A stretch of DNA of 16,706 bases from Deltaproteobacteria bacterium (GTDB taxonomy: Bacteria; JACQOV01), in assembly GCA_016202395.1 (NCBI GenBank), contig JACQOV010000108.1:1-16706 (forward strand), in the 5' to 3' direction. The translations under genes and the position numbers were made by a program. Below the pieces are notes generated by a model. That model ran no database searches. It was not told where the DNA came from and worked only from the letters and a program-made list of their open reading frames with translations. Below, in pieces: positions 2,876-16,264 of this stretch (within the stretch, counting starts at the first letter, position 1; the number at the start of each line of letters is the position of its first letter).

Positions 2876-4525
2876 ATGAAAAAGTTTCAATTCGTAATAA
2901 CTATTTTAGGCCTATTCGCATTAATTGGTCTTGGGTGCGGAGGGAGCTCAAGCTCTACCAGCGCCTCCACCGATACGGATAGCGATAGTGACACCACAAC
3001 GACCGAGAACGCACTCGCTGCTGAGGCATATCCGTCGGATCTGGTGATCACCTCGCCCACCGCCTCGAGCTCTGGATCGGCACTGAGAGCGGCATTGACT
3101 CGCACTGCGGCCGTAGACGAACCGGCTGGCGAACCAAAGACCATGGATGTATCTACGGAGGAATTTAAACCTCTACCTCCTTCTGAAATGAAGGAGAACA
3201 TTGCAACAATACTCGAGGCGGACTCGGAAGATGGCTGCGCCTTCTCTCTCTACATGGGGGCCCCAACAGGTTCCGCCAACTGTTATGGACCTAGCGTGAA
3301 CTATTCCAACCATCCTAACGCCAGCCAACAGGGGCAAAACCCTGGCCTTCAAACGGCCAGTGGACAACTCCCCTCCGGAGACCTCGGAATCTGGACGGAG
3401 AACGAGGCGAGCACGGGAGAGGCCTGTATCGCCGCTAAACTCAATGCCCAGGTTTCCGAGTTCGGAGCGATGCTCGACATGGCAATCAACTCCTTTGCCT
3501 CGATGATGTGCGTGGGGAAGGTCAATGATCAAGAGCCCCCTTCTGAAGTAGGCGAAGTGTTGGATCTAACAGAGATCTTCGAAGATTCTGGGGCAGCCCC
3601 TTTCACCGTTGAAGAAGCAACGACGACCCGTGAGGAGGATACCGCCGAAGGGAACGAAAACTTTGAATCCACCCTTGCGATGTCGGTTGGAATGGTGACT
3701 GAAGGAGAGACGGTGGATCTGTCGGGAGAATGTACACTGGATCACGTTAAGTTGAATGACGACAACACCCTCTACGAAGGGCACTTGACCTGTGTCATGA
3801 CGCGAGAGGTCTTCCCCGGAGAACCCACGGGGGGTTGCACCGATCCCAATGAGGACACACTCACGGATGCCCTCTCCATCGTTTATGAAAAGGCCACTGC
3901 AGACTCCCTTAATTATGAGGTCCGAAAGGCCACGTTCTGTGGAGAACTCACACTGGCCGATGTGATCACCGACGGGGAAGTGAACACTTCGGGCTGGGCC
4001 GGCAACTATCACTATGCCCTCTTCAATATGGATCCCGATACGTTCGAAGGGAACTTTGAATACGCCTGGCAGGCTGGAAGCGGAGACAGCAACACCCGAG
4101 CGTTTAACCTCTCTCTCACAGAGGATGAAGCAGAAACCGTGAGTGGCTGTGGGTACTTCGGTTACGGCCCGGCGGTGACCTCGGCTAATCTGGGTATGAT
4201 CGACGAGTTTATCTGCAACTGGGCGGGGCCTGGGAATAGTCACGACGGGCTCTTGAAAGCGCAACGCCAATGTATCACCAAATCGGCAACGGATACGGAG
4301 TTCCAATCGGTGAGCGCGAATCTGGATATCGTCTATGCGCCCACGAACAGTTGCGATGCCTCTGCGGGAGGTAACTTCACCTACACTGCCACTGGCACCC
4401 CCGCGGGAGGGACTCCAGGGGTGAGCCTGGATCGCTCTACAGCGACCACTGCGGTCACGCATGATCTCTTTCTGCTCTCGAATATCACCGACTTCACCGC
4501 CCCTACGGCGCCCGACGTTGATTAA
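2876..4525 (+). CDS. Secreted acidic Cys-rich lipoprotein (549 aa). No recognisable catalytic motif.
   Basis: Strong SD AAAGGAGG 5 nt upstream. Signal peptide MKKFQFVITILGLFALIGLGC followed by GGSSSSTSAS linker. Very D/E/T/S-rich with about 18 cysteines (likely disulfides). Coding periodicity is maintained over 1.65 kb. Confidence 0.85.
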   Translation: MKKFQFVITILGLFALIGLGCGGSSSSTSASTDTDSDSDTTTTENALAAEAYPSDLVITSPTASSSGSALRAALTRTAAVDEPAGEPKTMDVSTEEFKPLPPSEMKENIATILEADSEDGCAFSLYMGAPTGSANCYGPSVNYSNHPNASQQGQNPGLQTASGQLPSGDLGIWTENEASTGEACIAAKLNAQVSEFGAMLDMAINSFASMMCVGKVNDQEPPSEVGEVLDLTEIFEDSGAAPFTVEEATTTREEDTAEGNENFESTLAMSVGMVTEGETVDLSGECTLDHVKLNDDNTLYEGHLTCVMTREVFPGEPTGGCTDPNEDTLTDALSIVYEKATADSLNYEVRKATFCGELTLADVITDGEVNTSGWAGNYHYALFNMDPDTFEGNFEYAWQAGSGDSNTRAFNLSLTEDEAETVSGCGYFGYGPAVTSANLGMIDEFICNWAGPGNSHDGLLKAQRQCITKSATDTEFQSVSANLDIVYAPTNSCDASAGGNFTYTATGTPAGGTPGVSLDRSTATTAVTHDLFLLSNITDFTAPTAPDVD

Positions 4526-4567: not shown

Positions 4568-4626
4568 ACAGGGTTGTGGGGAAGTTATCTTGTCAAGAAG
4601 AACGTTCTGAGATAGACTGCGTTTGC

Positions 4627-6213
4627 ATGTCTGAACAAAATACCTTCTATGACTACATTGTTGTCGGTTCGGGGTTTGGAGGATCTGTCTCGGCTCTGCG
4701 ACTTGCGGAGAAGGGTTATAAAGTCGCTGTTTTGGAATCTGGGAAACGTTGGGCGGACCACGATTTCCCCAAAACCAACTGGAACGTTTTTAAATTCCTC
4801 TGGTTCCCCAAAGTATTGATGCGAGGCTTTCAAAAAATCACCTTCTTCAAAAGGGTGATGATCCTCTCGGGAACGGGAGTGGGCGGGGGATCTCTCGTTT
4901 ATGCCAACACCTTGCTCACCCCCCCGGATCGATTTTATCAAGACCCTGTCTGGAAAAATCTCGCCGATTGGAAAAAAGAGCTCGCCCCCCACTACGAAGT
5001 GGCTAAAAGAATGCTCGGTGTTACCCCCTATCCCTCACGAAGTCCCGCCGATGAAGCGCTTAAAAAAGGGGCCGATGCCCTGGGTTATGGTCATACCCAG
5101 TACAATGTGAATGTTGGGGTTTTTTTCGGCGAGCCCGGAAAGACGGTGAAAGATCCTTACTTCGGAGGGAAAGGACCCGATCGCGCCGGATGCACCGAGT
5201 GCGGTGGATGCATGGTCGGCTGCCGTCACAACGCAAAAAACACTTTGGTCAAAAACTATCTCTACTTCGCTGAGAAAAAAGGGGTTCAAATCTTTCCGGA
5301 AACACGGGTCGAAAAAATTATCCCAACCGAGGAAGGCTATCAACTGGCGACCTATCGATCGACACAAGTCCTGGGCAAAACGGAGAAGATTTATCGCGCC
5401 AAAGGGATTGTTCTCTCCGGGGGAGTGCTCGGCACCGTCAAACTTTTGTTCCAATGTCGCGACTATTACAAAACGCTCCCTCACCTCTCGTCGAGGTTAG
5501 GCGATTTTGCTCGAACCAATAGCGAGGCCCTTTTAGGAGTCTTCGCAAAATCGCGGAAGGTCGATTACTCCCAAGGAATCGCGATTACGAGCGGAGTTCA
5601 TGCGAACGATCATACCCATATCGAGGTCGTTCGTTATCCGAAAGGCTCTGGCCTGATGGGACTTCTAGGATGTCTGCTCGTAGGGCCGGGTTCTCGTTGG
5701 ATCCGTCCTTTAAAACTCTTTCTTCACATGCTGCTGCGCCCTTGGGTGTGGCTGCTGACCTATCTCGCTCCAGGTTGGTCTCAGAGATCGATCATCCTTC
5801 TAGTGATGCAAACGCTAGACAATCACATGAAGTTTCGACTCCAAAGAAAGAGACTCACGACTGAGTTTGGAGACTCTCCCCCTCCTCCGTCGTATGTGAA
5901 AGAAGGGAATGAACTGGCCGAACAGATTGCCAAATCGATCAATGGCATTCCGCTAGGCTCCATTTCAGAAACCGTCTTTGGCCTTCCCACCACAGCCCAT
6001 ATCTTAGGAGGATGCCCCATCGGTAAAGACCGTGAGCATGGCGTTATCGATCCTTTCCATAGAGTTTTCGGTTATCCCAATATGTATGTGGCGGATGGTT
6101 CGATGATCCCGGCTAATCTCGGGGTGAACCCTTCACTGACTATCACCGCCATGTCGGAACGGGCGATGAGTTACATCGCTGCCAAAGAGCAAGTTCAAGC
6201 GAAAGCGGCGTAG
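4627..6213 (+). CDS. GMC-family FAD-dependent oxidoreductase (cholesterol/choline-oxidase-like).
   Basis: N-terminal Rossmann motif DYIVVGSGFGGSVSALRLAEKGYKVAVLESG. GTGVGGGSLVYAN. C-terminal GMC signature GYPNMYVADGSMIPANLGVNPSLTITAMSERA. ATG at 4627 chosen over the ORF-track GTG at 4576 because the FAD motif follows directly. No clear SD. Confidence 0.85.
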   Translation: MSEQNTFYDYIVVGSGFGGSVSALRLAEKGYKVAVLESGKRWADHDFPKTNWNVFKFLWFPKVLMRGFQKITFFKRVMILSGTGVGGGSLVYANTLLTPPDRFYQDPVWKNLADWKKELAPHYEVAKRMLGVTPYPSRSPADEALKKGADALGYGHTQYNVNVGVFFGEPGKTVKDPYFGGKGPDRAGCTECGGCMVGCRHNAKNTLVKNYLYFAEKKGVQIFPETRVEKIIPTEEGYQLATYRSTQVLGKTEKIYRAKGIVLSGGVLGTVKLLFQCRDYYKTLPHLSSRLGDFARTNSEALLGVFAKSRKVDYSQGIAITSGVHANDHTHIEVVRYPKGSGLMGLLGCLLVGPGSRWIRPLKLFLHMLLRPWVWLLTYLAPGWSQRSIILLVMQTLDNHMKFRLQRKRLTTEFGDSPPPPSYVKEGNELAEQIAKSINGIPLGSISETVFGLPTTAHILGGCPIGKDREHGVIDPFHRVFGYPNMYVADGSMIPANLGVNPSLTITAMSERAMSYIAAKEQVQAKAA

Positions 6214-6569
6214 TTCAAAATCAACGCAACAAGAGCGGGAAGCGCTTGTATCACCCAAATCGTCCGGTTGGCAGTGAACCCGCCATAGAGGCCCGCGACG
6301 ACAACACAAATCAAGAAAAATAACTTGAATTCAAGGTTATTCGACCCCAGTCCCCACAATAATCCCGCGGCTAGAAATCCGTTGTAGAGCCCTTGATTGG
6401 CTGCAAGCGTGGCCGAGAATTTGGATTGTTCTGGGGTCATTTGGAAGATTTTTCTCCCTACCGGATGATCCCAGAGAAACATTTCCAAAATCAAAAACCC
6501 GATATGGCTCACTGCAACAAAAACTACTGCGACATTTGCGAGTAAACTCACCAACGCACTCCTCGTCAT
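6195..6569 (-). CDS. Small integral membrane protein (4 predicted TM helices), DUF1304-like.
   Basis: 124 aa, ATG at 6569, hydrophobic segments throughout. The 3' end overlaps the convergent oxidoreductase gene by 19 bp. The family name is from memory only. Confidence 0.55.
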   Translation of the reverse strand: MTRSALVSLLANVAVVFVAVSHIGFLILEMFLWDHPVGRKIFQMTPEQSKFSATLAANQGLYNGFLAAGLLWGLGSNNLEFKLFFLICVVVAGLYGGFTANRTIWVIQALPALVALILNYAAFA

Positions 6570-6612
6570 TGTTTGTGATTTATCAAGAACAGTTAAAACT
6601 GATCCCGTCTGC

Positions 6613-6873
6613 TCATACCTTGATCATCTCTATGGGTAGCTCCTTGCCACAATGCTTACAAACGATGGCATCTTCTTTAATGATCTCTGCACAGTAGGGA
6701 CATTTTTTGGTATATCCTGTAGATACCAGAGGTGGAAACACAATAATAACAGCAATAAGTAACGGAACAATGGCGCATAAGAAAAACCACACTATCGGAT
6801 TGCGCCCCTTCCTTCTAGCTATAATGCCACCTATAACGCCTGCAATAGCAAGCAGAATAACATATCTAAGCAA
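6613..6873 (-). CDS. Tiny membrane protein with C-terminal C4 zinc ribbon (CPYC...CKHC).
   Basis: 86 aa. TTG start at 6873 with SD GGAGG 6 nt upstream. Two hydrophobic helices, then CPYCAEIIKEDAIVCKHCG. Confidence 0.6.
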   Translation of the reverse strand: MLRYVILLAIAGVIGGIIARRKGRNPIVWFFLCAIVPLLIAVIIVFPPLVSTGYTKKCPYCAEIIKEDAIVCKHCGKELPIEMIKV

Positions 6874-6924
6874 TGGATGCCTCCAAGATTATTCGTTAAC
6901 GAAGCGCTATTCATAGCGCTTCAT

Positions 6925-7782
6925 TTATCTTTTCTGTATCTCACCTACGCCAATAAATGGCACAGCCCCAGCCCCTGTAACCTGGGGGAGGATTCCGTTC
7001 CATTTATCTATAGCCTTGAGATTGGCCTCTATCTTTCTAAGCTCTATAAGGTCCGGCGAAATATTTGCCCTTTGCAGCCTCAGGGATTCGGCCTCTGCCC
7101 TGGCCGCCGTAATTGTCTGCTCTGCCTCGATCTTTATCCTATCGAGGTCTCTCTTTGCTTTTAGTGCAAGCTGTTCCGCTGTCTGTTTTGACTCAATAGC
7201 CTCCGTAAATACCTTGGAGAAGCTGAATGAGATAATAGAAAACGCATCCACTGCTATATTATATGCCATGAGTCTTTCAGCAAGCGCTGCTCTTATGGCC
7301 TCGCTGACTGCTGCCCTCTTTGTAATAAGTTCTTCTGCGGAGTACTTGGCTGACACCGCTTTCATTACCTCTTGTATTGCAGGGTCTACAATACGCTCCT
7401 TGAAGTGTACCCCAATGGTTTGATAGACAACGTTGACCTTATCAGGTATGACATGATAGTTAAGCGCAACCGCTGAACTCACATCCTGAAGATCAGCCGA
7501 GGCAGATGCGGCGCCTGTCTCTGCCTTCTGCACCTTAACATCCATGATGGAAACCGTCTGCATGATAGGCATCCTGAAATGCAGTCCTTCATTCAACACC
7601 TTATCTTGAACGGCGCCAAAATTGAGGACAATCCCTCTTTCACCTGCCCCAACCTGAACCCATGGATGTAAAAACAGAAAACTGACCAGAATGGCTCCAA
7701 TAATCAGCGCCAGCCTCATAGGTCCTTTTTTCATTGCAGACTGCACCGCCTCCTTAGCCCTGTAAACATCCCTTTCATCCAT
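6925..7782 (-). CDS. SPFH/Band-7 prohibitin-family membrane protein.
   Basis: ATG at 7782 with perfect SD AAAGGAGG 7 nt upstream (the ORF-track TTG at 7800 is rejected). N-terminal TM helix (LALIIGAILVSFLFLHPWV), SPFH core, and C-terminal coiled coil KQTAEQLALKAKRDLDRIKIEAEQTITAARAEAESLRLQRA typical of prohibitins. Confidence 0.85.
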   Translation of the reverse strand: MDERDVYRAKEAVQSAMKKGPMRLALIIGAILVSFLFLHPWVQVGAGERGIVLNFGAVQDKVLNEGLHFRMPIMQTVSIMDVKVQKAETGAASASADLQDVSSAVALNYHVIPDKVNVVYQTIGVHFKERIVDPAIQEVMKAVSAKYSAEELITKRAAVSEAIRAALAERLMAYNIAVDAFSIISFSFSKVFTEAIESKQTAEQLALKAKRDLDRIKIEAEQTITAARAEAESLRLQRANISPDLIELRKIEANLKAIDKWNGILPQVTGAGAVPFIGVGEIQKR

Positions 7783-7897
7783 GATACCGCCTCCTTTCAA
7801 TCGTGAGCCCCGATTTATTTCTGGACTCTCTAGACTTTGAAATCAAAATGTCGCTAAGCACAGTTACCAGAAACTAGGCCCAGGTTCAAGTATTGAA

Positions 7898-7917
7898 CCG
7901 GATCCCAAGCATTTTTT
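7898..7917 (+). repeat. Copy of the dispersed CCGGATCCCA..TTTTTT element (variant CCGGATCCCAAGCATTTTTT), preceded by a 7-bp hairpin GGTTCAA-gta-TTGAACC (7883-7899).
   Basis: Aligned by eye to 14581-14601 (CCGGATCCCATCTTTTTT). Confidence 0.4.
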
Positions 7918-7928
7918 CGTGTCCATCC

Positions 7929-8195
7929 TCATTTATGACTCATCTCTTGACGGGCTTTCTCAGCAAGCCAAATTTTGATGAGTGCCTGATAAGCGATATC
8001 CATCCGAGAGGAAATCCTCTTGATTTGGGTTAAAAGTGGAACAGGAAGACGCAGCGAAATGGATTGTACGGGTGGTTCGTAAATCAGTTCCAACCGCTTT
8101 TGGGAAGATAAGTCTAGGACTTCTGTGGCATCATGGCTATCCCAAAAGTTTGCCACTTCTTCTTCAGGGATTCGTTTTTCTACTTTCTTCTTCAT
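7929..8195 (-). CDS. brnA: BrnA antitoxin (RHH/CopG-like), type II toxin-antitoxin system.
   Basis: 88 aa. N-terminal EEEVANFWDSHD and C-terminal SISLRLPVPLLTQIKRISSRMDIAYQALIKIWLAEK match the BrnA consensus as I remember it. Overlaps the brnT 3' end by 32 nt. Confidence 0.8.
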   Translation of the reverse strand: MKKKVEKRIPEEEVANFWDSHDATEVLDLSSQKRLELIYEPPVQSISLRLPVPLLTQIKRISSRMDIAYQALIKIWLAEKARQEMSHK

Positions 8196-8469
8196 ACCAC
8201 TTTCTCTCTTTCTGGCTCATGGGCCGAGCGCTAATAATTCTGACTTTTTCTTCTCTCATGGTGAAGGCAATTAACAAAGTACGCCCTGGATTGGTTTTCC
8301 CAAAGAGCACATACCTCTTCTCCTCTTCTGTTGAATGTCTTTCATCTACGTAAACCATCGGGCTCCCCAGAAAGACCTCTTCAGCTTCTTGGCAGTTTAC
8401 CTGATGCTTACGAAGACTCTTTTCCCGATTCCCCTCATCCCAATCGAAACCGCAGAACTTGAGATCCAT
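8164..8469 (-). CDS. brnT: BrnT toxin (DUF497 ribonuclease toxin), type II toxin-antitoxin system.
   Basis: 101 aa. FDWDEGNREKSLRKHQVNCQEAEEVF, then RTLLIAFTMREEKVRIISARPMSQKERKWYEE, the classic BrnT pattern. ATG at 8469. Confidence 0.8.
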   Translation of the reverse strand: MDLKFCGFDWDEGNREKSLRKHQVNCQEAEEVFLGSPMVYVDERHSTEEEKRYVLFGKTNPGRTLLIAFTMREEKVRIISARPMSQKERKWYEEESRKTNP

Positions 8470-8497
8470 ATTTTAAAAATACCTCAAAGATATGTCT

Positions 8498-8526
8498 AAT
8501 ATATCAAAAACCTCGTATTTTGTCTA
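8498..8526 (-). promoter_or_regulatory. Candidate sigma-70 promoter for brnTA (minus strand: -35 TAGACA at 8526-8521, 17-nt spacer, -10 TATATT at 8503-8498), with the inverted repeat GATAT-N7-ATATC overlapping the -10 as a possible BrnA operator.
   Basis: Read from the reverse complement of 8470-8552. Downstream SD-like GAGGT 10 nt before the ATG. Confidence 0.3.
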
Positions 8527-8552
8527 GCATAGAACTGGGAATAAAGAAAATG

Positions 8553-8625
8553 TGGAGCGGAGGGGAGTCGAACCCCCGGCCTCGGCGTTGCGAACGCCGC
8601 GCTCTCCCAGCTGAGCTACCGCCCC
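8553..8625 (-). tRNA. tRNA-Ala (anticodon CGC), 73 nt, CCA not encoded.
   Basis: The reverse complement folds by hand as a cloverleaf. Acceptor GGGGCGG/CCGCTCC with the G3:U70 Ala identity pair. D-arm GCTC/GAGC. Anticodon stem CGGCG/CGCCG with loop TTCGCAA (CGC). T-arm GGGGG-TTCGACT-CCCCT. Discriminator A. Confidence 0.85.
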
Positions 8626-8670: not shown

Positions 8671-9549
8671 CTAACTCCTAAGCAAAAAAGAATTTAAAAA
8701 ACTGCGCAGCTCAGGACCCACATCAGAACGCCTCAAACCTAAAGCGACATTGGCCTGCAAGAAACCGAGTTTGCTCCCAACATCGTACCAGGTCCCCTCA
8801 AAACAATAGCCGTAAAGTTTCCTCTGTTGCGCAAGCTTCGCTAAGCCATCCGTCAATTGAATTTCTCCCCCAACTCCCGGTTGCGCCTCTTCTAAAATCG
8901 AAAATATCTGCGAAGGCAAAATATAGCGCCCCATCACTGCGAATAAAGAAGGGGCTTTTTCTGGAGAGGGCTTCTCAACAATCCTCTCGACTTGATAGAG
9001 ATTTTCAGAGACCACACTCCCCTCAATCACGCCATAGCGATGAATCTGATCTAGAGGGACATGATAAAGAGCGACCGTCGCTGCATCGTTGGGAATCTCC
9101 TCGTAAGAGCTTAACAGTTGGCCCAAACACGGCTCTGAACCGGAGGTGATATCGTCTGGAAGCAAAACAGCAAAAGGCTCCTCCCCCACGGCCTCTTTTG
9201 CGCAAAGAACCGCATGCCCTAATCCCAGAGGAACTTTCTGCTCAACCGATTTCACACGCACTAAAGAGGTGAGCTGCCTTAACTCTTCGAGGAGATCCTG
9301 CTTCCCCTTGGAATCCAAGAATGCCTCCAAGGATGGAGAAGATTCAAAGTGTTCCACAATCTGTCGCTTGCCGGGATTGCTGACAAGAATCACCTCTTCA
9401 ATCCCGGATTGAACCGCTTCCTCGATGACTAACTGGATTACAGGGCGATCGACAATGGGCAAAAGCTCTTTGGGGAGGACCTTGGTGGCGGGCAAGAAAC
9501 GGGTTCCGAATCCTGCCGCAGGGATGACGGCTTTACGAATTTTTCGCAT
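8671..9549 (-). CDS. galU: UTP--glucose-1-phosphate uridylyltransferase.
   Basis: 292 aa. N-terminus KAVIPAAGFGTRFLPATKVLPKELLPIVDRP is the GalU nucleotidyltransferase signature. Start overlaps the upstream GAF gene stop by 17 nt. Confidence 0.9.
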   Translation of the reverse strand: MRKIRKAVIPAAGFGTRFLPATKVLPKELLPIVDRPVIQLVIEEAVQSGIEEVILVSNPGKRQIVEHFESSPSLEAFLDSKGKQDLLEELRQLTSLVRVKSVEQKVPLGLGHAVLCAKEAVGEEPFAVLLPDDITSGSEPCLGQLLSSYEEIPNDAATVALYHVPLDQIHRYGVIEGSVVSENLYQVERIVEKPSPEKAPSLFAVMGRYILPSQIFSILEEAQPGVGGEIQLTDGLAKLAQQRKLYGYCFEGTWYDVGSKLGFLQANVALGLRRSDVGPELRSFLNSFLLRS

Positions 9550-10648
9550 GGGACCCTTGGATCTTTTTCAATTGATCTAAAAGAAAGGCGTGATGGATGG
9601 CCATGCTCGCCGCGCTTGCAAGCATCTGCAACAGCTCCATGTCTTGATCCGAAAAGGAATCTGCCTCAAAACTGTCCACATTGAGAACTCCAATCACCTT
9701 CTCTTCCCAAGCCATAGGAACTGCCAACTCCGATTCCACTTTGGTGTTCGCAATGACATATCGTGGATCTTGCTTGACTCGAGGAACCATCAAAGGCTGA
9801 TTTTCTTTAGCAACCCAACCGGTAACCCCCTCACCAATCCCCAAACGCAATTTCTCGGCAACCCCCGGGGCAAGTCCTTTCTCCGACCGTATCACCAATT
9901 CCATAGTCTCAGAGTCAATTAACATTAAAGAGCCGGTATGGGCCCCCGTCAGCTCTATCGCTTTGGCAACCACGGTATCCAAACGCTCCTGCAAACTTAA
10001 GCCCGAATCCATAATCTGTTTGCCTAAAAGAAAGATAGACCTCTGCCACTCCATTTTTCTTTGCAACCGGGCGATCAAGTTGGCATTCTCCTCCGCAATG
10101 GCCGCCAGGTTCGCGAGCATCGTCAGCAGCCTCAGATCATCCTCCGTAAAATGACTGCTATCGATTTTCGAATCGGCCGTGATGACACCCAAAACCTTCT
10201 CCTTGATTTTGAGTGGAGCCACCAAAAAGCTTTCCACTCCAAGCTCTTTCAACTCCTTCTTTAAAACCTTTTCTTCACGGCTGGCGTCTTTCACCCATGT
10301 CGCCTGCCCTGTTTTGGCAACATCTCCCAAAATTCCACGACCGAGTTTTATTCGAAAGCTGGCGAGAAAATCTTCATCGACCAAACCGCTTCCCGCGCCC
10401 ACAATTAACTCCTTCTTCTTGGGATCGATCAAGAGCAAAACGGAGCGCTTGACCCCCAAAATGACGGTCACCGTTTCTGTAATCAATCGATGGGTTTTGT
10501 CCACGCTCTCCATGGAACTTGCCATGGCCCGACCAATCTCGTAGAGCATGGCGGTTTGAGCATTGGACACGGAATGACGGCCAAAATCAATGAGGCGCCC
10601 CGGCGCAAGGCCAGAGAGGAGCTCACGAATCTCATCAAACAAACTCAT
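9533..10648 (-). CDS. Tandem GAF-domain protein (two GAF modules, no obvious output domain).
   Basis: 371 aa. ATG at 10648 with SD AGGAGAA 7 nt upstream. Two GAF-like segments (each with the typical ...L..P... fold pattern). Translationally coupled to galU. Confidence 0.75.
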   Translation of the reverse strand: MSLFDEIRELLSGLAPGRLIDFGRHSVSNAQTAMLYEIGRAMASSMESVDKTHRLITETVTVILGVKRSVLLLIDPKKKELIVGAGSGLVDEDFLASFRIKLGRGILGDVAKTGQATWVKDASREEKVLKKELKELGVESFLVAPLKIKEKVLGVITADSKIDSSHFTEDDLRLLTMLANLAAIAEENANLIARLQRKMEWQRSIFLLGKQIMDSGLSLQERLDTVVAKAIELTGAHTGSLMLIDSETMELVIRSEKGLAPGVAEKLRLGIGEGVTGWVAKENQPLMVPRVKQDPRYVIANTKVESELAVPMAWEEKVIGVLNVDSFEADSFSDQDMELLQMLASAASMAIHHAFLLDQLKKIQGSHAKNS

Positions 10649-11047: not shown

Positions 11048-11154
11048 ATTCACATCCCTCCCCTTTAAAAACAAGGACTTAGGAGAAACAGCCGAACCTA
11101 GCTAGTCTATAGAATTAAAAGACCAAAGTCAATATTTTTGCCAAGTCGCATCGG

Positions 11155-11583
11155 TCATTCGACGTTGTCTTCTTGACGGAGAAGGAGATAACAAATCAAT
11201 GAAATCAAGGCAATAGAGCCATCGATGGCAAAGTTGAGAAGATAAACGAAGGCGTGGGCGCTCGTGAAATAAAAGGCCAGACAGGAAAGAGAAGAGGCCG
11301 CCTTGGCAAGGGCCAATAATATTAAGAGATTCCCGTAACGCTCCAGATCCTTTTGGATAAAGTAAGCGATCCCTGTCACAGAGACCATAAAAGCGAAGGT
11401 GAGTGAGAGCCAAAACCGGTTGGTGGCTGTCACTACGGGATGAAAATCTCCCAAAAGGGCTCCTGCCTGGTTAACGGCGCGCAGCGTCCCTTCCGGAAAG
11501 AGCAGGAAGATCAATCCCACCACGGCAAAGCAGACCATGAGAATGCGGACAACCCACAAAATGCCTTTTTCTTTAATGGACAT
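11155..11583 (-). CDS. Hypothetical inner-membrane protein with four TM helices, immediately downstream of the porin-cytochrome gene.
   Basis: ATG at 11583 (GTG at 11586 as an alternative). 142 aa. Four clear hydrophobic helices. No SD. Confidence 0.55.
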   Translation of the reverse strand: MSIKEKGILWVVRILMVCFAVVGLIFLLFPEGTLRAVNQAGALLGDFHPVVTATNRFWLSLTFAFMVSVTGIAYFIQKDLERYGNLLILLALAKAASSLSCLAFYFTSAHAFVYLLNFAIDGSIALISLICYLLLRQEDNVE

Positions 11584-11641: not shown

Positions 11642-12685
11642 CTAAAAGAAGAGGTGCAATTCGGAAAAGAGCTCATTGTTATCTTGGTTTGGAGACTCCT
11701 CATTCCATCGGTACTTCAATTCAAAGCGCGAAAATCGAACGGGGAAAAACTCAAATCCTGCGCTGTAACGGCGCAAATCATCGTCAGCAATATCCCTGTC
11801 AGGATCCAAAAAATCGTACTTCACTTTGAGATTGATTCCTTGACGAAGAAGCCAATGGAGCTCCACGAGTGATGCGTCGATCTGCGCGATACTCCCCTCC
11901 TCTTCGTCCTCACCCCGATCGATCTCCCAAAGCAACGTTCCATCCCAATAACTCAAAGCGCCAAAGAGTCCATAACGCGTGCTAGTGACGGTGGGTGTTG
12001 GGTTTCGAAAAAATGAACCTCCAATCCAGAGGCGCCGTTTTACAAATCCTCCTTTCACCGTAAAAGCCTTGGCATCGTTTTGATCGTTGCCGGCGAAAGT
12101 CCCGTTGGTTAAAGAGGCGTTCCAAAACCATGGGCCTTGATTCAACCCCACTTCCACGCCATCGTCGGGCAAGCTAAAAGCAAAGCCTAAACTGCCACGA
12201 ACAAAGGAGCTGTCATCGGGGATTCGAAGGCCATAGGGGAGCGTAAATCTTCCAAACTTCGCATAGAACCCCAGAGGCAAATCTGAAATTAAGCCAAAGA
12301 TCTCTTGTGTTCCCGAGAAGAAATCGTTCTCCAGATGAAAAGCAAGGTGTCGGGCAAGATCCACCGTCAAATAGAGATCCCCCTGATAATCCGTAAAGGT
12401 GGCATCTCCACTTTCGGAATGGGTCCACCGAAACTTAAGATCGCTTCCGATAGAGATATTGGGGTTGAGTTGGCTATCCAGCGAAGAAACGTCGGGAAAA
12501 TCTTTCCAATAGGGAAGTTGATTCTCAGCGTACGAAACACCGAAGAGGTTTCGCTGTCCTGCGCCGGTGGGATTGATGTGGCAGAGGTTACAAGTCACTC
12601 CTTCTCTGGCGGCCAGCCGAGGCTCGGCGTGAAGAGACACACTAAAAACGACAAGAAAAATGAATAGAAAAGGTATCTTTTCCAT
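11642..12685 (-). CDS. Outer-membrane beta-barrel protein with an N-terminal single CXXCH haem-binding motif (Cyc2-like fused cytochrome-porin architecture).
   Basis: 347 aa. ATG at 12685 with SD AAGGA 7 nt upstream. Signal peptide MEKIPFLFIFLVVFSVSLHA. CNLCH at mature residues about 12-16. The remainder is alternating amphipathic/aromatic strands (KFRWTH, LKVKYDF, YSAGFEFF, FELKYRWN) ending in the beta-signal ELHLFF. Confidence 0.8.
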   Translation of the reverse strand: MEKIPFLFIFLVVFSVSLHAEPRLAAREGVTCNLCHINPTGAGQRNLFGVSYAENQLPYWKDFPDVSSLDSQLNPNISIGSDLKFRWTHSESGDATFTDYQGDLYLTVDLARHLAFHLENDFFSGTQEIFGLISDLPLGFYAKFGRFTLPYGLRIPDDSSFVRGSLGFAFSLPDDGVEVGLNQGPWFWNASLTNGTFAGNDQNDAKAFTVKGGFVKRRLWIGGSFFRNPTPTVTSTRYGLFGALSYWDGTLLWEIDRGEDEEEGSIAQIDASLVELHWLLRQGINLKVKYDFLDPDRDIADDDLRRYSAGFEFFPVRFSRFELKYRWNEESPNQDNNELFSELHLFF

Positions 12686-13280: not shown

Positions 13281-13306
13281 TATAGGAGGTGTTTCACCAA
13301 AGTCAA
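13279..13306 (-). promoter_or_regulatory. Near-consensus sigma-70 promoter on the minus strand: -35 TTGACT (13306-13301), 16-nt spacer, -10 TATAAT (13284-13279). The -10 overlaps the ATG at 13280, so the transcript would start about 7 nt later, essentially at GTG 13271 (leaderless).
   Basis: Read from the reverse complement of 13261-13310. Confidence 0.35.
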
Positions 13307-13319
13307 TTTTCACACTTAC

Positions 13320-13352
13320 AAACCGAAATACCGAAGTCAGATCCCATCTTCC
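13320..13352 (+). repeat. Left copy of the dispersed repeat (AAACCGAAATACCGAaGtCaGATCCCATCTTcc), abutting the -35 of the ATPase promoter.
   Basis: The 15-nt exact match AAACCGAAATACCGA is shared with 14644-14658. GATCCCATCTT is shared with 14587-14597. Confidence 0.5.
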
Positions 13353-13353
13353 A

Positions 13354-13382
13354 TTGACATAAGTCCATATTTATCGTATTAT
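13354..13382 (+). promoter_or_regulatory. Near-consensus sigma-70 promoter TTGACA-N17-TATTAT, only 8 nt upstream of the ATG at 13391, with no SD: a leaderless or near-leaderless transcript of the ATPase gene.
   Basis: TTGACA at 13354-13359, TATTAT at 13377-13382, ATG at 13391, intervening tctggacc. Confidence 0.5.
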
Positions 13383-13390
13383 TCTGGACC

Positions 13391-14554
13391 ATGTTCAGAA
13401 GAATCATAAGTCCTTTAAAAACCTACAGTTTTTTTCTCTTTGGAGCCAGGGGAACGGGCAAGTCGACCTTTCTGAGAAGCTATTTTCAAGGTGAAAACGT
13501 TCTCTGGTTTGACCTTCTCGACCCCGAGAAAGAAGATCTTCTGGAGCGGCATCCCAATGCGTTGACGGAAGAGATCGCGGGTCAAAAAGAAAAGCCCGGA
13601 TGGGTAGTCATTGACGAGGTGCAGAAGATTCCCAAACTGCTCGATCTGGTGCACCAGCTGATTGAGACATCCCATTTAAAATTTGCCCTCACAGGATCGA
13701 GCGCAAGGAAACTTAAAAGAGGGGGCGCGAACCTTCTTGCGGGACGAGCCTTCGTCAATCACCTTTTTCCATTGACCCATGTCGAGATGGGTGAAGAATT
13801 TAATTTGACGAATGCCTTGCACTGGGGAACCTTGCCCAAAATCTCTCAACTCCATACCGACGAAGAAAAAAACGATTTCCTTCGAGCTTACGCCTTGACT
13901 TATCTCAAAGAGGAAGTGTGGGCGGAGCATTTTATAAGAGAGCTTCCTCCCTTCCGCAAATTCCTAGAGGTGGCTGCGCAAACAAACAGTGAGATTGTGA
14001 ATTACACCAACATCGCGAAAGATGTGGGGGCCGATGTAAAAACCGTCCAATCTTATTTTGAAATCCTTGAAGACACTCTTCTGGGGTTTTTATTGGAGCC
14101 GTACCACCGCTCGATCCGCAAACAACAAAGGAAAAGCCCAAAATTTTATTTCTTCGATGTCGGCGTCAAAAGGGCGTTAGATCGAACCCTCCCTCAACAA
14201 CTTCTCCCTCAAACTTCTGTTTATGGGAAGGCTTTCGAACATTTTTTGATGATAGAGATCCATCGTCTCAACACCTATCTTAAAAAAGATTTCCGTCTTT
14301 CCTACTTGTTAACAAAGGACGGGGCGGAGATTGATCTTATTATGGAGAGACCTGGAGCTCCAACGGCATTGGTCGAAATCAAATCTTCAGAACATGTGGA
14401 TGAACGAGACACGCGCATTGTTCAATCTTTCTTAAAAGATTTCGAGAAAGCTCAAGCGTATGTTCTATCTCGAGATCCTCGCCCCAAGAAAATTGGGGAT
14501 GTTTACGCCCTGCCTTGGCAAGAGGGACTTCAAGAGATCGGATTAACCCCATGA
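13391..14554 (+). CDS. AAA-family ATPase of the AAA_14 + DUF4143 type.
   Basis: 387 aa. Walker A GARGTGKST and Walker B VVIDEVQKIP, with the conserved architecture of this widespread ATPase family. The DUF4143 tail is recalled from memory. Confidence 0.85.
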   Translation: MFRRIISPLKTYSFFLFGARGTGKSTFLRSYFQGENVLWFDLLDPEKEDLLERHPNALTEEIAGQKEKPGWVVIDEVQKIPKLLDLVHQLIETSHLKFALTGSSARKLKRGGANLLAGRAFVNHLFPLTHVEMGEEFNLTNALHWGTLPKISQLHTDEEKNDFLRAYALTYLKEEVWAEHFIRELPPFRKFLEVAAQTNSEIVNYTNIAKDVGADVKTVQSYFEILEDTLLGFLLEPYHRSIRKQQRKSPKFYFFDVGVKRALDRTLPQQLLPQTSVYGKAFEHFLMIEIHRLNTYLKKDFRLSYLLTKDGAEIDLIMERPGAPTALVEIKSSEHVDERDTRIVQSFLKDFEKAQAYVLSRDPRPKKIGDVYALPWQEGLQEIGLTP

Positions 14555-14573
14555 GAATAAGTTGAATGAGCGA

Positions 14574-14601
14574 CATACCAAAGCCGGATCCCATCTTTTT
14601 T
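14574..14601 (+). repeat. Right copy 1 of the dispersed repeat (ACATACCAAAGCCGGATCCCATCTTTTTT), 20 bp past the ATPase stop.
   Basis: Aligns with 14650-14680 and 13326-13352. Confidence 0.5.
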
Positions 14602-14624
14602 AATTCACCCTTCGATAAACTCAG

Positions 14625-14636
14625 GACAGGCCTGTC
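14625..14636. repeat. Perfect 12-bp palindrome GACAGGCCTGTC between the two right-hand repeat copies.
   Basis: It equals its own reverse complement. Confidence 0.4.
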
Positions 14637-14643
14637 GAACCAT

Positions 14644-14680
14644 AAACCGAAATACCGAGGCCGAACCCCCATCTTTTTCT
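14644..14680 (+). repeat. Right copy 2 of the dispersed repeat (AAACCGAAATACCGAGGCCGAACCCCCATCTTTTTCT).
   Basis: 15-nt exact match to 13320-13334 plus the related 3' half. Confidence 0.5.
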
Positions 14681-14991
14681 TACCAACAGTGCCAGAAGTA
14701 AATACCATTCCCCTCCCGCCGGCAGTAACATAAACGATCTCCCATGCCATCATCCCTCTGTAAAAATTTTAATCTCCCTCTTTCGGAATTTTCGTTGCAA
14801 TCGGAGGGACTATCACCGCCAGGTTTAAACCAACCCATGTTCCCCATAGATCCCGCATCTGAGCCTGAAGAAGGTTGAAATTGGATATCTCTGGCTTGGA
14901 TGCCTCCACCAGCATGAAAATCTCCGGAACCAAAAAACTGGAACGCTGCTCCTCCATTGTCATAACAAAGGGCACCACCATTTAGAATCAC
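14680..14991 (-). CDS. Possible small Gly-rich protein (103 aa, GTG start) downstream of the tail-fibre-repeat gene. Weak call.
   Basis: Longest ORF in a 470-bp gap. Gly-rich N-terminus like the upstream gene. No recognisable motif. Only a weak SD-like GGGGAAGG 10 nt before the GTG. Confidence 0.2.
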   Translation of the reverse strand: MILNGGALCYDNGGAAFQFFGSGDFHAGGGIQARDIQFQPSSGSDAGSMGNMGWFKPGGDSPSDCNENSERGRLKFLQRDDGMGDRLCYCRREGNGIYFWHCW

Positions 14992-15025
14992 ATCCTTACA
15001 ACCTTCCCCACCAAAACCAGGGTGA

Positions 15026-16264
15026 TCAAACGATCAAGATGTCATTCTCTATAGAAATATCAAAATAATTCCCAGTGCTATCAATGAAACTGATATTTTT
15101 GGACAGAAGCACATCCAAAATAATATCATCCGCTCGAATGTCTCCGTTGACATCGAGTTTGTATTGAGAATTAGGAGAAGTGCCTATCCCCATATTGCCT
15201 GTGATTATTTGAACTCCTTGATCGCTGATCCGAGCAATGTCGGCCTCGCCCACTACAAATGTATGGCTTGTGGACGCTACGACTCCATAGTTCATCCCTC
15301 CTCCATGCCCCAGGACATAGGATGAAACTCCTTCTCCCGTTAAATTCAGTCTCGCGCCAAACATCTGCCCCTCCACATACAAATCCTGATCTGATCGCAA
15401 ACTCCCATACGTGTGGATATCCCCTCCATCCACATCCAGCTTGTAGTCGGGAACCGCCCTCCCAATCCCCACATTGCCAGCATCTAACATAAGATTCGCA
15501 TCGGGATCTCCATTGTAATCTAATGCCCGAATTTTGTATAAATCGGGTGTATCTGCGGTAATTTGCAAACGCCTCCAAGAATCATAATATATCTGCAAAT
15601 CGCCAGGATTAATGTAAGTACTCTTCCCTCCCCCCGCGATACTTAACTTCGCCTCCGGTCTTGTCGTCCCGATGCCCACGTTGCCATTGCCCTGAACAGT
15701 GAGGTAATCGTTCGTTCCAGGAATGCCTCCAGAGGCGCTGATCTTGAATTTATGCACATCGGATCGGTCAACTCCAATCGTCCAAGCGTCCTCACCCCCT
15801 ATGTCTCCCGTGCCAGGATGATCGAATTTGATGATGGTGTCTCCTGCATTAAGACCGCCGTTACTGAGTATTAGTCGAATGTTTTTGTTATCTGTCCCAT
15901 CTCCTCGAATCTGCACCCCCCCATTATCTTGAGTATTTCTAACATCGAGAGCATAACCCGGATCCGCCGTTCCCACACCCAAATTGCCATTGGCCACGAT
16001 AAAATCCCCTTGGGAACCCATGGCGTAAGGGACGGAAACCAGGTGCTGATAAGCTACCTTCTGTGGATCAGAATCCCCATCCATCTTTTCCCATCCACTC
16101 CCATCGGCATCTCCCAACATCACCTGCAAATACAACTCCGATCCCACTATGACATTCTCGTCATCTCCTATGTCATTCCAGCTCCCTAACTCCACGGAAA
16201 AAATCCCTCCACTCACTTCTACCGGTTCCGTCACAGCCGAGGACCATTCCTCCTCCCATACCAC
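15026..16264 (-). CDS. Gly/Asp-rich surface or tail-fibre-like protein with four tandem GN[LVM]G[IV]GT..P..KLDV repeats (phage tail-fibre-type repeat).
   Basis: 412 aa. GTG start at 16264 with SD-like GGGGAGG upstream. Repeats NLGVGTADPGYALDV / NVGIGTTRPEAKLSI / NVGIGRAVPDYKLDV / NMGIGTSPNSQYKLDV. No in-frame signal peptide (see the finding on 16231-16425). Confidence 0.75.
   Translation of the reverse strand: MVWEEEWSSAVTEPVEVSGGIFSVELGSWNDIGDDENVIVGSELYLQVMLGDADGSGWEKMDGDSDPQKVAYQHLVSVPYAMGSQGDFIVANGNLGVGTADPGYALDVRNTQDNGGVQIRGDGTDNKNIRLILSNGGLNAGDTIIKFDHPGTGDIGGEDAWTIGVDRSDVHKFKISASGGIPGTNDYLTVQGNGNVGIGTTRPEAKLSIAGGGKSTYINPGDLQIYYDSWRRLQITADTPDLYKIRALDYNGDPDANLMLDAGNVGIGRAVPDYKLDVDGGDIHTYGSLRSDQDLYVEGQMFGARLNLTGEGVSSYVLGHGGGMNYGVVASTSHTFVVGEADIARISDQGVQIITGNMGIGTSPNSQYKLDVNGDIRADDIILDVLLSKNISFIDSTGNYFDISIENDILIV

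Follow-up and report, generated by a model that had tools for sequence, protein, structure and literature searches.

What occupies the interval directly behind the tRNA-Ala gene on a contig of an uncultured deltaproteobacterium, and by which route did it come to be there? The contig (JACQOV010000108.1 of the assembly GCA_016202395.1, Deltaproteobacteria bacterium) was analysed over its full length of 16,706 nucleotides (nt), which is referred to here as the window. Between positions 6195 and 8530 it carries the toxin-antitoxin (TA) genes brnT and brnA, an SPFH/Band-7 gene of the prohibitin type, the gene for a small zinc-ribbon membrane protein and a DUF1304 gene, beyond which lies a GMC oxidoreductase gene. 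An original prediction for this DNA had regarded the five genes as an AT-rich block of the kind left by a small genomic islet or by the remnant of an integrated element. The gene identities and positions that it gave are all correct (ARAGORN, Rfam, Pfam, NCBIfam), and the block does begin immediately 3' of the tRNA-Ala(CGC) gene, at position 8552. Here it is proposed that the interval from tRNA-Ala(CGC) to DUF1304/GMC is likely a recombination hotspot, whose content is swapped or lost among relatives, and that the slot holds two separately acquired modules, brnTA on the one hand and the SPFH gene with its zinc-ribbon neighbour (SPFH+Zn) on the other.

The comparison of the same slot among relatives carries most of this proposal. 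Three relatives were found among 5.8 billion proteins, with GalU identities of 91, 90 and 75%, and two of them lie on informative contigs; the relative with 91% identity (P0001) is a 1.4-kb contig that stops right after galU and is uninformative for the slot. Beyond these three, the identity of the core GalU protein drops to 55%, and the GTDB species representatives offered no GalU match above 52% and no usable synteny; an exact-sequence look-up of the window GalU gave no record. The first informative relative, L082, is a 6.2-kb contig from the JGI sample 3300045072, with 88% nucleotide identity to the window across dksA, the GAF gene, galU and the tRNA. Its homology to the window breaks at most about 11 nt from the 3' end of the tRNA and restarts, at 80% nucleotide identity, at the Shine-Dalgarno sequence (SD) and start of DUF1304 (blastn). 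Between these two points L082 has genes for an N6/N4 DNA methyltransferase and an MvaI/BcnI-family endonuclease, replacing brnTA and SPFH+Zn. This cassette (positions 4330-5758 of L082) is a complete-looking type II restriction-modification (R-M) pair (N6_N4_Mtase with an MvaI/BcnI-type endonuclease) and is AT-rich as well, with 43.2% GC as compared with 49.2%. The second informative relative, L081, is part of a 95-kb contig from the sample ERR14788038, with about 70% nucleotide identity to the window; in it GAF-galU-tRNA-Ala adjoins the GMC oxidoreductase gene at the latter's 3' end, priA comes next, and none of the five block genes are present in its slot. One slot is found in three states in the three genomes, being occupied by brnTA and SPFH+Zn in the window, by a methyltransferase and an endonuclease in L082 and by nothing in L081, and the segment that varies corresponds to approximately positions 6573-8541. 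The presence of a small genomic islet beside the tRNA gene, as originally predicted, is supported by this comparison with sister genomes, in which the block is neither conserved in all relatives nor uniform in composition.

The DUF1304 gene had been counted as part of the AT-rich foreign block; instead, it marks the distal boundary of the slot, being common to the window and L082 (80% nucleotide identity) and absent in L081, with host-like codon usage and a host-like GC content at third codon positions (54%). Its GAGGAG SD precedes a GTG at position 6551, from which a protein of 118 amino acids (aa) would be translated, the same length as the L082 orthologue; because of this SD and this length, the GTG is a likelier start than the ATG at 6569. 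The synonymous divergence (dS) of DUF1304 between the window (6195-6551) and L082 (5853-6209) is 1.39, whereas the genes of the other flank have a dS of 0.41-0.49 and 88-90% nucleotide identity, as if a different allele of DUF1304 had been recombined in along with the cassette.

The block had also been read as one element, which does not agree with the distribution of its genes, as at least two modules have been acquired independently. The islet is composite because brnTA, which is rare and has no relative above 66% aa identity, and SPFH+Zn, which is widespread, differ in their distribution and are never linked elsewhere. Of the SPFH homologues, 5591 have E<=1e-20, and more than 120 have 82-89% aa identity to the window protein and occur in metagenome-assembled genomes (MAGs) named as several phyla; these sources include Deltaproteobacteria, Thermodesulfovibrionales/Nitrospirae, Elusimicrobia, Syntrophaceae and Desulfobacterales. 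When 84 SPFH loci were compared with the whole window by blastn, only the segment from 6579/6617 to 7797/7876 was matched, at 77-90% nucleotide identity, and the matches never take in brnTA, the tRNA or DUF1304. They begin at the SD of the SPFH gene, except for a few loci in which they start 60-95 nt farther upstream (extending to 7857 in L086, L087, L116 and L119 and to 7876, past which none goes, in L140), and they end at the stop codon of either the SPFH or the zinc-ribbon gene. The region upstream of the SPFH gene is homologous to that of copies in Thermodesulfovibrionales-type loci. The 84 loci represent 51 distinct flank contexts, in which the GC content of the flanks varies between 33.9 and 63.4% as against 42.8-49.1% for the SPFH gene itself (slope 0.08); in L137, for instance, the SPFH gene forms a single-gene trough of 43-46% GC in DNA of 63-68% GC, between typA/bipA and a rubrerythrin-like gene. 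The dS between the window SPFH gene and other copies is 0.35-0.65 (Nei-Gojobori), whereas the core galU and GAF genes, with a dS of 0.41-0.49 to L082, are saturated (>2) to L081. As the SPFH values are far below this saturated core divergence, the module has been exchanged between unrelated genomes well after the window and L081 lineages split. Judged from these sequences, SPFH+Zn is demonstrably horizontally acquired.

The second module, brnTA, has the toxin gene first, with brnA overlapping brnT by 32 nt. BrnT belongs to PHROG 4399 ("ribonuclease toxin") and has a distant solved homologue described as a toxin (PDB 7vd7, E=1.8e-6), and BrnA reaches 44.6 bits with the NCBIfam equivalog model, under its cut-off of 60. 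The nearest BrnT homologues outside the window's own record are 65-66% identical at the aa level, and 17 relatives were found at E<=1e-10. In the two homologues examined (L094 and L095), a solitary brnT-brnA pair is located among housekeeping genes, also toxin-first and with overlapping open reading frames (ORFs), and there is no SPFH gene nearby; linkage of brnTA to an SPFH gene was found neither in these two loci nor in the 84 SPFH loci. As in the BrnT/BrnA system of Brucella abortus, both proteins (101 and 88 aa) have their Pfam domains above threshold and the upstream toxin gene overlaps the antitoxin gene; however, the window pair is divergent (best homologue 66%), its BrnA falls below the NCBIfam cut-off and the pair is known here from its sequence. 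BrnT is predicted to be an RNase blocked by BrnA, which may also be the repressor of the operon, and the pair would function as an addiction or abortive-infection module, with a tendency to stabilise the surrounding DNA. Upstream of brnT, the 82-nt spacer has two sigma70-like matches (8526-8498 and 8498-8470), which are consensus matches only, the region having a total of 4 against 3.7 expected.

Composition separates the block from the rest of the window less sharply than had been claimed. The block has 45.2% GC against 50.4% in the remaining window, and its AT-richness is real; the contrast of 38-45 with 48-63% was overstated, as 300-nt windows within the block have 41-49%. No other 2.3-kb stretch of the window is lower in GC, and only 0.6% of sliding windows are equally low. 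Synonymous codon usage was scored against the other window genes, with a null that preserves each protein sequence. The SPFH gene deviates strongly (z=5.3) and brnT and the zinc-ribbon gene weakly (z about 2), and the zinc-ribbon, SPFH, brnA and brnT genes pooled have z=7.5, a signal that is driven by SPFH. The GC and codon-usage check proposed originally gives a block that is not uniform, in which brnA and DUF1304 are ordinary.

A direct repeat of the tRNA 3' end had been suggested for the far boundary of the block, and it was looked for across the whole window and is absent. No second copy of the 3' part of the tRNA was found on either strand of the window, neither with exact k-mers of at least 12 nt nor with fuzzy matching at up to 13 mismatches in 45 nt; a general repeat search of the window gave short, chance-level pairs only, and L082 has no repeat of the tRNA 3' end within its 6.2 kb. 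In L081, a 45-nt partial copy of tRNA-Ala is found 30 nt past the intact tRNA (positions 11133-11195, corresponding to approximately 8538-8595 of the window). This copy spans the anticodon loop to the 3' end, with 37 of its 45 positions matching L081's own tRNA and an 84% match to the window, flank included. It is followed by the trailer TTTTTGTTCTTTATGCC, which resembles the window tRNA trailer ATTTTCTTTATTCC and, less closely, the trailer of L082, and its acceptor 3' strand CCGCTCC pairs with the 5' strand of the window and L082 tRNAs, not with that of L081's own. By these features the partial copy looks like an attachment-site (att) scar; integrases whose crossover falls in the anticodon loop reportedly leave behind a duplicate that begins in that loop and reaches the 3' end. 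The L081 copy is evidence for tRNA-Ala having served as an integration target in the lineage, and it is no evidence on the window's own block.

With these observations, a route into the slot can be proposed. SPFH+Zn would have been taken up horizontally from a pool of nearly identical copies in sediment and groundwater anaerobes, and the DNA in the slot would have entered through homologous recombination within the conserved flanking sequence (galU-tRNA at one end, DUF1304/GMC at the other). Recombination in the flanks is the most likely route of entry, and it fits because the breakpoints at the tRNA and at the DUF1304 start are precise, because a cassette has been swapped in L082 and because DUF1304 has the dS given above. 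The exchange may have taken place where a tRNA-targeting integrase had first opened the site; such earlier activity is suggested by the partial tRNA duplicate in L081. Alternatively, the block could be a single integrative element (a prophage, a satellite or an integrative mobilizable element) that entered tRNA-Ala by means of a tyrosine integrase and decayed, its integrase, distal att site and most of its genes having since been deleted. Of the two possibilities in the original prediction, the islet has stood, while for such a remnant the window itself has neither an integrase nor an att repeat and the sole hint is the L081 duplicate. A remnant is possible, though not probable. The block is located directly 3' of the tRNA, its contents are AT-richer and variable between relatives, and at the same site L081 has its partial duplicate, which is said to be the expected form of an att scar. 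Prohibitin-family and BrnT-like genes are also found on phages (PHROG 200 and 4399, with phage matches of up to 51%), and tRNA loci are frequent hotspots of islands (PMC10121019). However, Pfam scans found no integrase, recombinase or transposase domain in any substantial ORF of the window, in agreement with the absence of an integrase stated originally, and the tRNA 3' end has no copy there even at 13 mismatches in 45. Neither does a single element agree with a rare brnTA (at most 66%) joined to an SPFH+Zn module that is ubiquitous at 80-90%, given that the two are never linked elsewhere. Other copies of SPFH+Zn are not beside tRNAs (none in the five loci checked), no integrase or transposase is present among the 25 commonest families of their neighbours, and a phage or plasmid vector was not found, as there is no close copy in IMG/VR, GenBank phages or PLSDB plasmids (best matches of 43, 51 and 47%, respectively).

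It is very improbable that the five genes are an ancestral core, which L081 would have lost and L082 overwritten, with a low GC content that only reflects the composition of membrane-protein and small genes. The codon usage of DUF1304 and brnA is host-like, the GC dip is small and has its equal in another part of the window, and in many Nitrospirota-type genomes SPFH+Zn looks resident among ion and osmotic homeostasis genes, all in favor of such a core; however, the low SPFH dS to unrelated genomes, set against the saturated core dS to L081, places the entry of the module after the split, the SPFH composition is independent of host GC over the range of 34-63%, homology stops at the borders of the module and the codon usage of the SPFH gene is deviant. 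For SPFH+Zn, an ancestral origin is largely refuted. Exceedingly improbable is an artefact of assembly or binning, that is, a chimeric MAG contig with the conserved SPFH gene as a false join. The window is a 16.7-kb metagenome-assembled contig and the conservation of its SPFH gene is high among many organisms that occur together; however, both flanks of the block are syntenic with the single 95-kb contig of L081 (GAF-galU-tRNA on one side, GMC-priA on the other) and belong therefore to one genome, whereas in a chimera the genome would change at the SPFH gene and would not change back. The tRNA, a cassette and DUF1304 are found in the same order in L082, independently. The chimeric contig was rejected on the flank synteny with L081.

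Several observations weigh against a recombination hotspot filled with two acquired modules. Mobility genes, att repeats and terminal repeats were found neither in the window nor around other copies of the module, and it is therefore that we infer the mechanism of entry. The GC dip is not distinctive by itself: positions 13291-15626 also have 45.2% GC, and for this reason GC alone fails to single out the block. There is no codon anomaly in brnA (z=-0.1) or in DUF1304 (z=-0.4), and the high dS of the latter comes from 118 codons. The relatives that inform on the slot are two only, L082 ends inside or just after DUF1304 so that the far flank is not covered, and both L081 and L082 could hold SPFH+Zn elsewhere in their genomes. 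In addition, the census of genes next to the module, given below, may be dominated by related Nitrospirota-like hosts, and rare integrases or transposases beyond its 25 families could be missed.

The SPFH protein has a single N-terminal transmembrane (TM) helix (residues 19-46), and all of its eight PDB matches are prohibitin 1/2 (best E=2e-35); the HflC models score far under their cut-offs, and the protein is nearer to the prohibitins than to HflK/C, stomatin or flotillin. The gene downstream encodes no NfeD partner; it encodes the zinc-ribbon protein, in which an RRKGR loop links two TM helices and the C-terminal part is a CxxC...CxxC zinc ribbon. In 52 of the 69 loci with room for it, this gene comes after the SPFH gene. 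According to the positive-inside rule, the SPFH domain as well as the zinc ribbon is predicted on the outer face of the membrane. By analogy with other SPFH proteins, this one probably assembles into an oligomeric scaffold in the membrane, and the zinc-ribbon protein is probably its partner or client. Strong SDs had been predicted for the three membrane-protein genes of the block, and they are present: AGGAGG for the SPFH gene, GGAGG before the TTG of the zinc-ribbon gene and the GAGGAG of DUF1304.

The neighbours of the module were counted with one representative locus per flank context, listing the 25 commonest families. The 141 ORFs include P-type cation ATPases (7), MscS channels (7), trehalose synthase (4), carbonic anhydrase (4), M23 peptidases (4) and OmpA (3). 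The recurrence of MscS channels, P-type cation ATPases and trehalose-synthesis genes suggests a role for SPFH+Zn in membrane, osmotic or ion stress.

Some individual copies of the module have features of their own. In the window, the spacer between the SPFH and zinc-ribbon genes has a near-perfect palindrome (6898-6925, AACGAAGCGCTAT/ATAGCGCTTCATT), a window-specific insertion that is absent from the other aligned copies. In L083, a MAG named as Deltaproteobacteria, SPFH+Zn is preceded by a TA-like pair (1906-2420) of a 103-aa protein with a weak match to a PBECR2 nuclease and a DUF2283 protein, in parallel to brnTA in the window. L084, a copy without the zinc-ribbon gene, has a perfect 15-nt tandem duplication (ATGGATGAGAGAGAT twice, 8001-8030) at the start of the SPFH gene. 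In L139, a fragment of a Mutator-family transposase (99-725) is located immediately upstream of an SPFH-only copy, in a contig of 57% GC; this is the only mobility gene seen adjoining the module.

The homology of the module breaks off almost precisely at the ribosome-binding site on one side and the stop codon on the other, and its GC content stays at 43-49% in hosts of 34-63% GC. For these reasons SPFH+Zn might be a self-contained and unusually mobile two-gene cassette, which crosses bacterial phyla without a recognisable mobility gene and perhaps has an undescribed way of spreading; this interpretation is considered unlikely. It could involve repeated allelic replacement across lineages, a cassette-type capture or a function under strong selection, for example the exclusion of phages at the membrane or protection from stress. 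A function of this kind, if true, would explain the landing of the module in defence-type slots beside TA and R-M genes (the window and L083). Terminal inverted or direct repeats were searched for around single-gene SPFH insertions (L137, L139, L144 and L084), and nothing consistent was found.

Escherichia coli (PMC10121019) and Pseudomonas aeruginosa (PMC10250203) are documented to have hotspots whose cargo is of the defence type and in which no mobile element is detectable. As in these hotspots, the window has a fixed slot between conserved genes that include a tRNA, the cargo varies between close relatives (TA, type II R-M or nothing) and the cassettes are AT-richer. In hotspot #37 of E. 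coli, 68% of the occupied sites have no detectable mobile genetic element (PMC10121019), and similarly no mobility genes are visible in the slot of the window. However, the window islet has 2 kb and four genes, three genomes were compared, and there is no match to a PADLOC model: the five block proteins and a 549-aa ORF of the window gave zero matches in PADLOC-DB 2.0 at E up to 0.01. Half of the window cargo is, in addition, a membrane-scaffold module and not a recognised defence system.

Among the SPFH subfamilies, SPFH4 was described by Hinderhofer et al. (2009, PMC2636767) as lacking an NfeD partner, and lateral transfer of SPFH genes in general was inferred in the same study. The window protein is like SPFH4 in having a Band_7 domain, an N-terminal anchor, a C-terminal helical region and no NfeD partner. 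It is unlike the SPFH4 of that paper, in which the word "zinc" has zero occurrences, in having a small zinc-ribbon membrane protein as partner (52/69 loci) and in its recent spread across lineages (78-90% nucleotide identity, 51 contexts), which goes much beyond the cases given there. In the PspA-YdjG/H/I (SamGHI) system of Bacillus subtilis, an SPFH protein works with a zinc-ribbon membrane protein in membrane stress (10.1101/2021.02.15.431232; 10.64898/2026.02.06.704340). The window is similar, by analogy only, in that an SPFH gene is located beside a gene for a zinc-ribbon membrane protein; unlike the window protein, YdjI is soluble and has its own zinc finger, the zinc ribbon there is of the TF_Zn_Ribbon type and here of the Zn_ribbon_3 type, and the window has no homologue of PspA or YdjH.

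The coordinates of the slot and of its neighbours are given in the table below.

Table. Features of the variable slot and of the genes on both sides of it, in window coordinates
Feature	Position	Strand	Remarks
GAF protein	9533-10648	minus	
galU	8671-9549	minus	
tRNA-Ala (anticodon CGC)	8552-8625	minus	ARAGORN; Rfam RF00005, 64.7 bits; proximal anchor of the variable slot
tRNA trailer and spacer upstream of brnT	8470-8551	minus	First ~14 nt are ATTTTCTTTATTCC
brnT	8164-8469	minus	101 aa; Pfam PF04365 BrnT_toxin, 85 bits (cut-off 34.5)
brnA	7929-8195	minus	88 aa; Pfam PF12441 CopG_antitoxin, 63.9 bits (cut-off 28)
Junction of brnTA module and SPFH module	7877-7928	minus	Imperfect hairpin CCGGTTCAA-TACT-TGAACCTGG
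Upstream region belonging to the SPFH module	7783-7876	minus	SD AGGAGG and hairpin GAGTCCAG...CGGGGCTC
SPFH/Band-7 gene, prohibitin type (SPFH4)	6925-7782	minus	285 aa; Pfam PF01145 Band_7, 113.8 bits
Spacer between SPFH and zinc-ribbon genes	6874-6924	minus	Palindromic hairpin at 6898-6925
Two-TM zinc-ribbon gene	6613-6873	minus	86 aa, TTG start; Pfam Zn_ribbon_3, 35.9 bits; PHROG 8436
Distal junction of the variable segment	6573-6612	minus	SPFH+Zn homology ends at 6579-6619; L082 homology restarts at ~6570 (DUF1304 SD)
DUF1304 membrane protein	6195-6569 as ORF, probably 6195-6551	minus	Pfam PF06993, 131 bits
GMC/cholesterol-oxidase-like gene	4576-6213	plus	Convergent with DUF1304
549-aa ORF	2876-4525	plus	Between the GMC oxidoreductase gene and priA

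The tRNA was the sole match in an Rfam scan of the window. Past the GMC oxidoreductase gene, the window continues with the 549-aa ORF and then with priA. This ORF has no match in Pfam, NCBIfam or PADLOC and a fairly high GC content (55%), and it is missing from L081, where the GMC gene adjoins priA, which makes it a second indel with respect to that genome. Synteny with L081 is already gone upstream of dksA. A 347-aa ORF on the minus strand (11642-12685) has no Pfam match, and only fragments of it are present in L082 (785-1131); the window segments ~12074-11627 and 12599-12308 are missing in L082, corresponding either to gene decay there or to insertions in the window. The AT-rich stretch at 13291-15626 contains a gene for an AAA_14/DUF4143 ATPase (13391-14554, plus strand) together with unannotated ORFs and may be another accessory segment.

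As an islet, the locus is a routine tRNA-adjacent variable slot. Its value is mainly that an uncultured deltaproteobacterial lineage gains a correct annotation, and that TA and R-M cassettes can be seen, on a small scale, to take each other's place at a single site where no mobility genes are visible. The spread of SPFH+Zn between unrelated bacteria is unusually wide, and this module is the part of the islet most worth following up. SPFH+Zn is very abundant in anaerobic sediment and groundwater metagenomes, where it is a testable candidate for a horizontally traded membrane-stress function, and it gives the bacterial prohibitins, which are functionally poorly understood, a defined partner protein.

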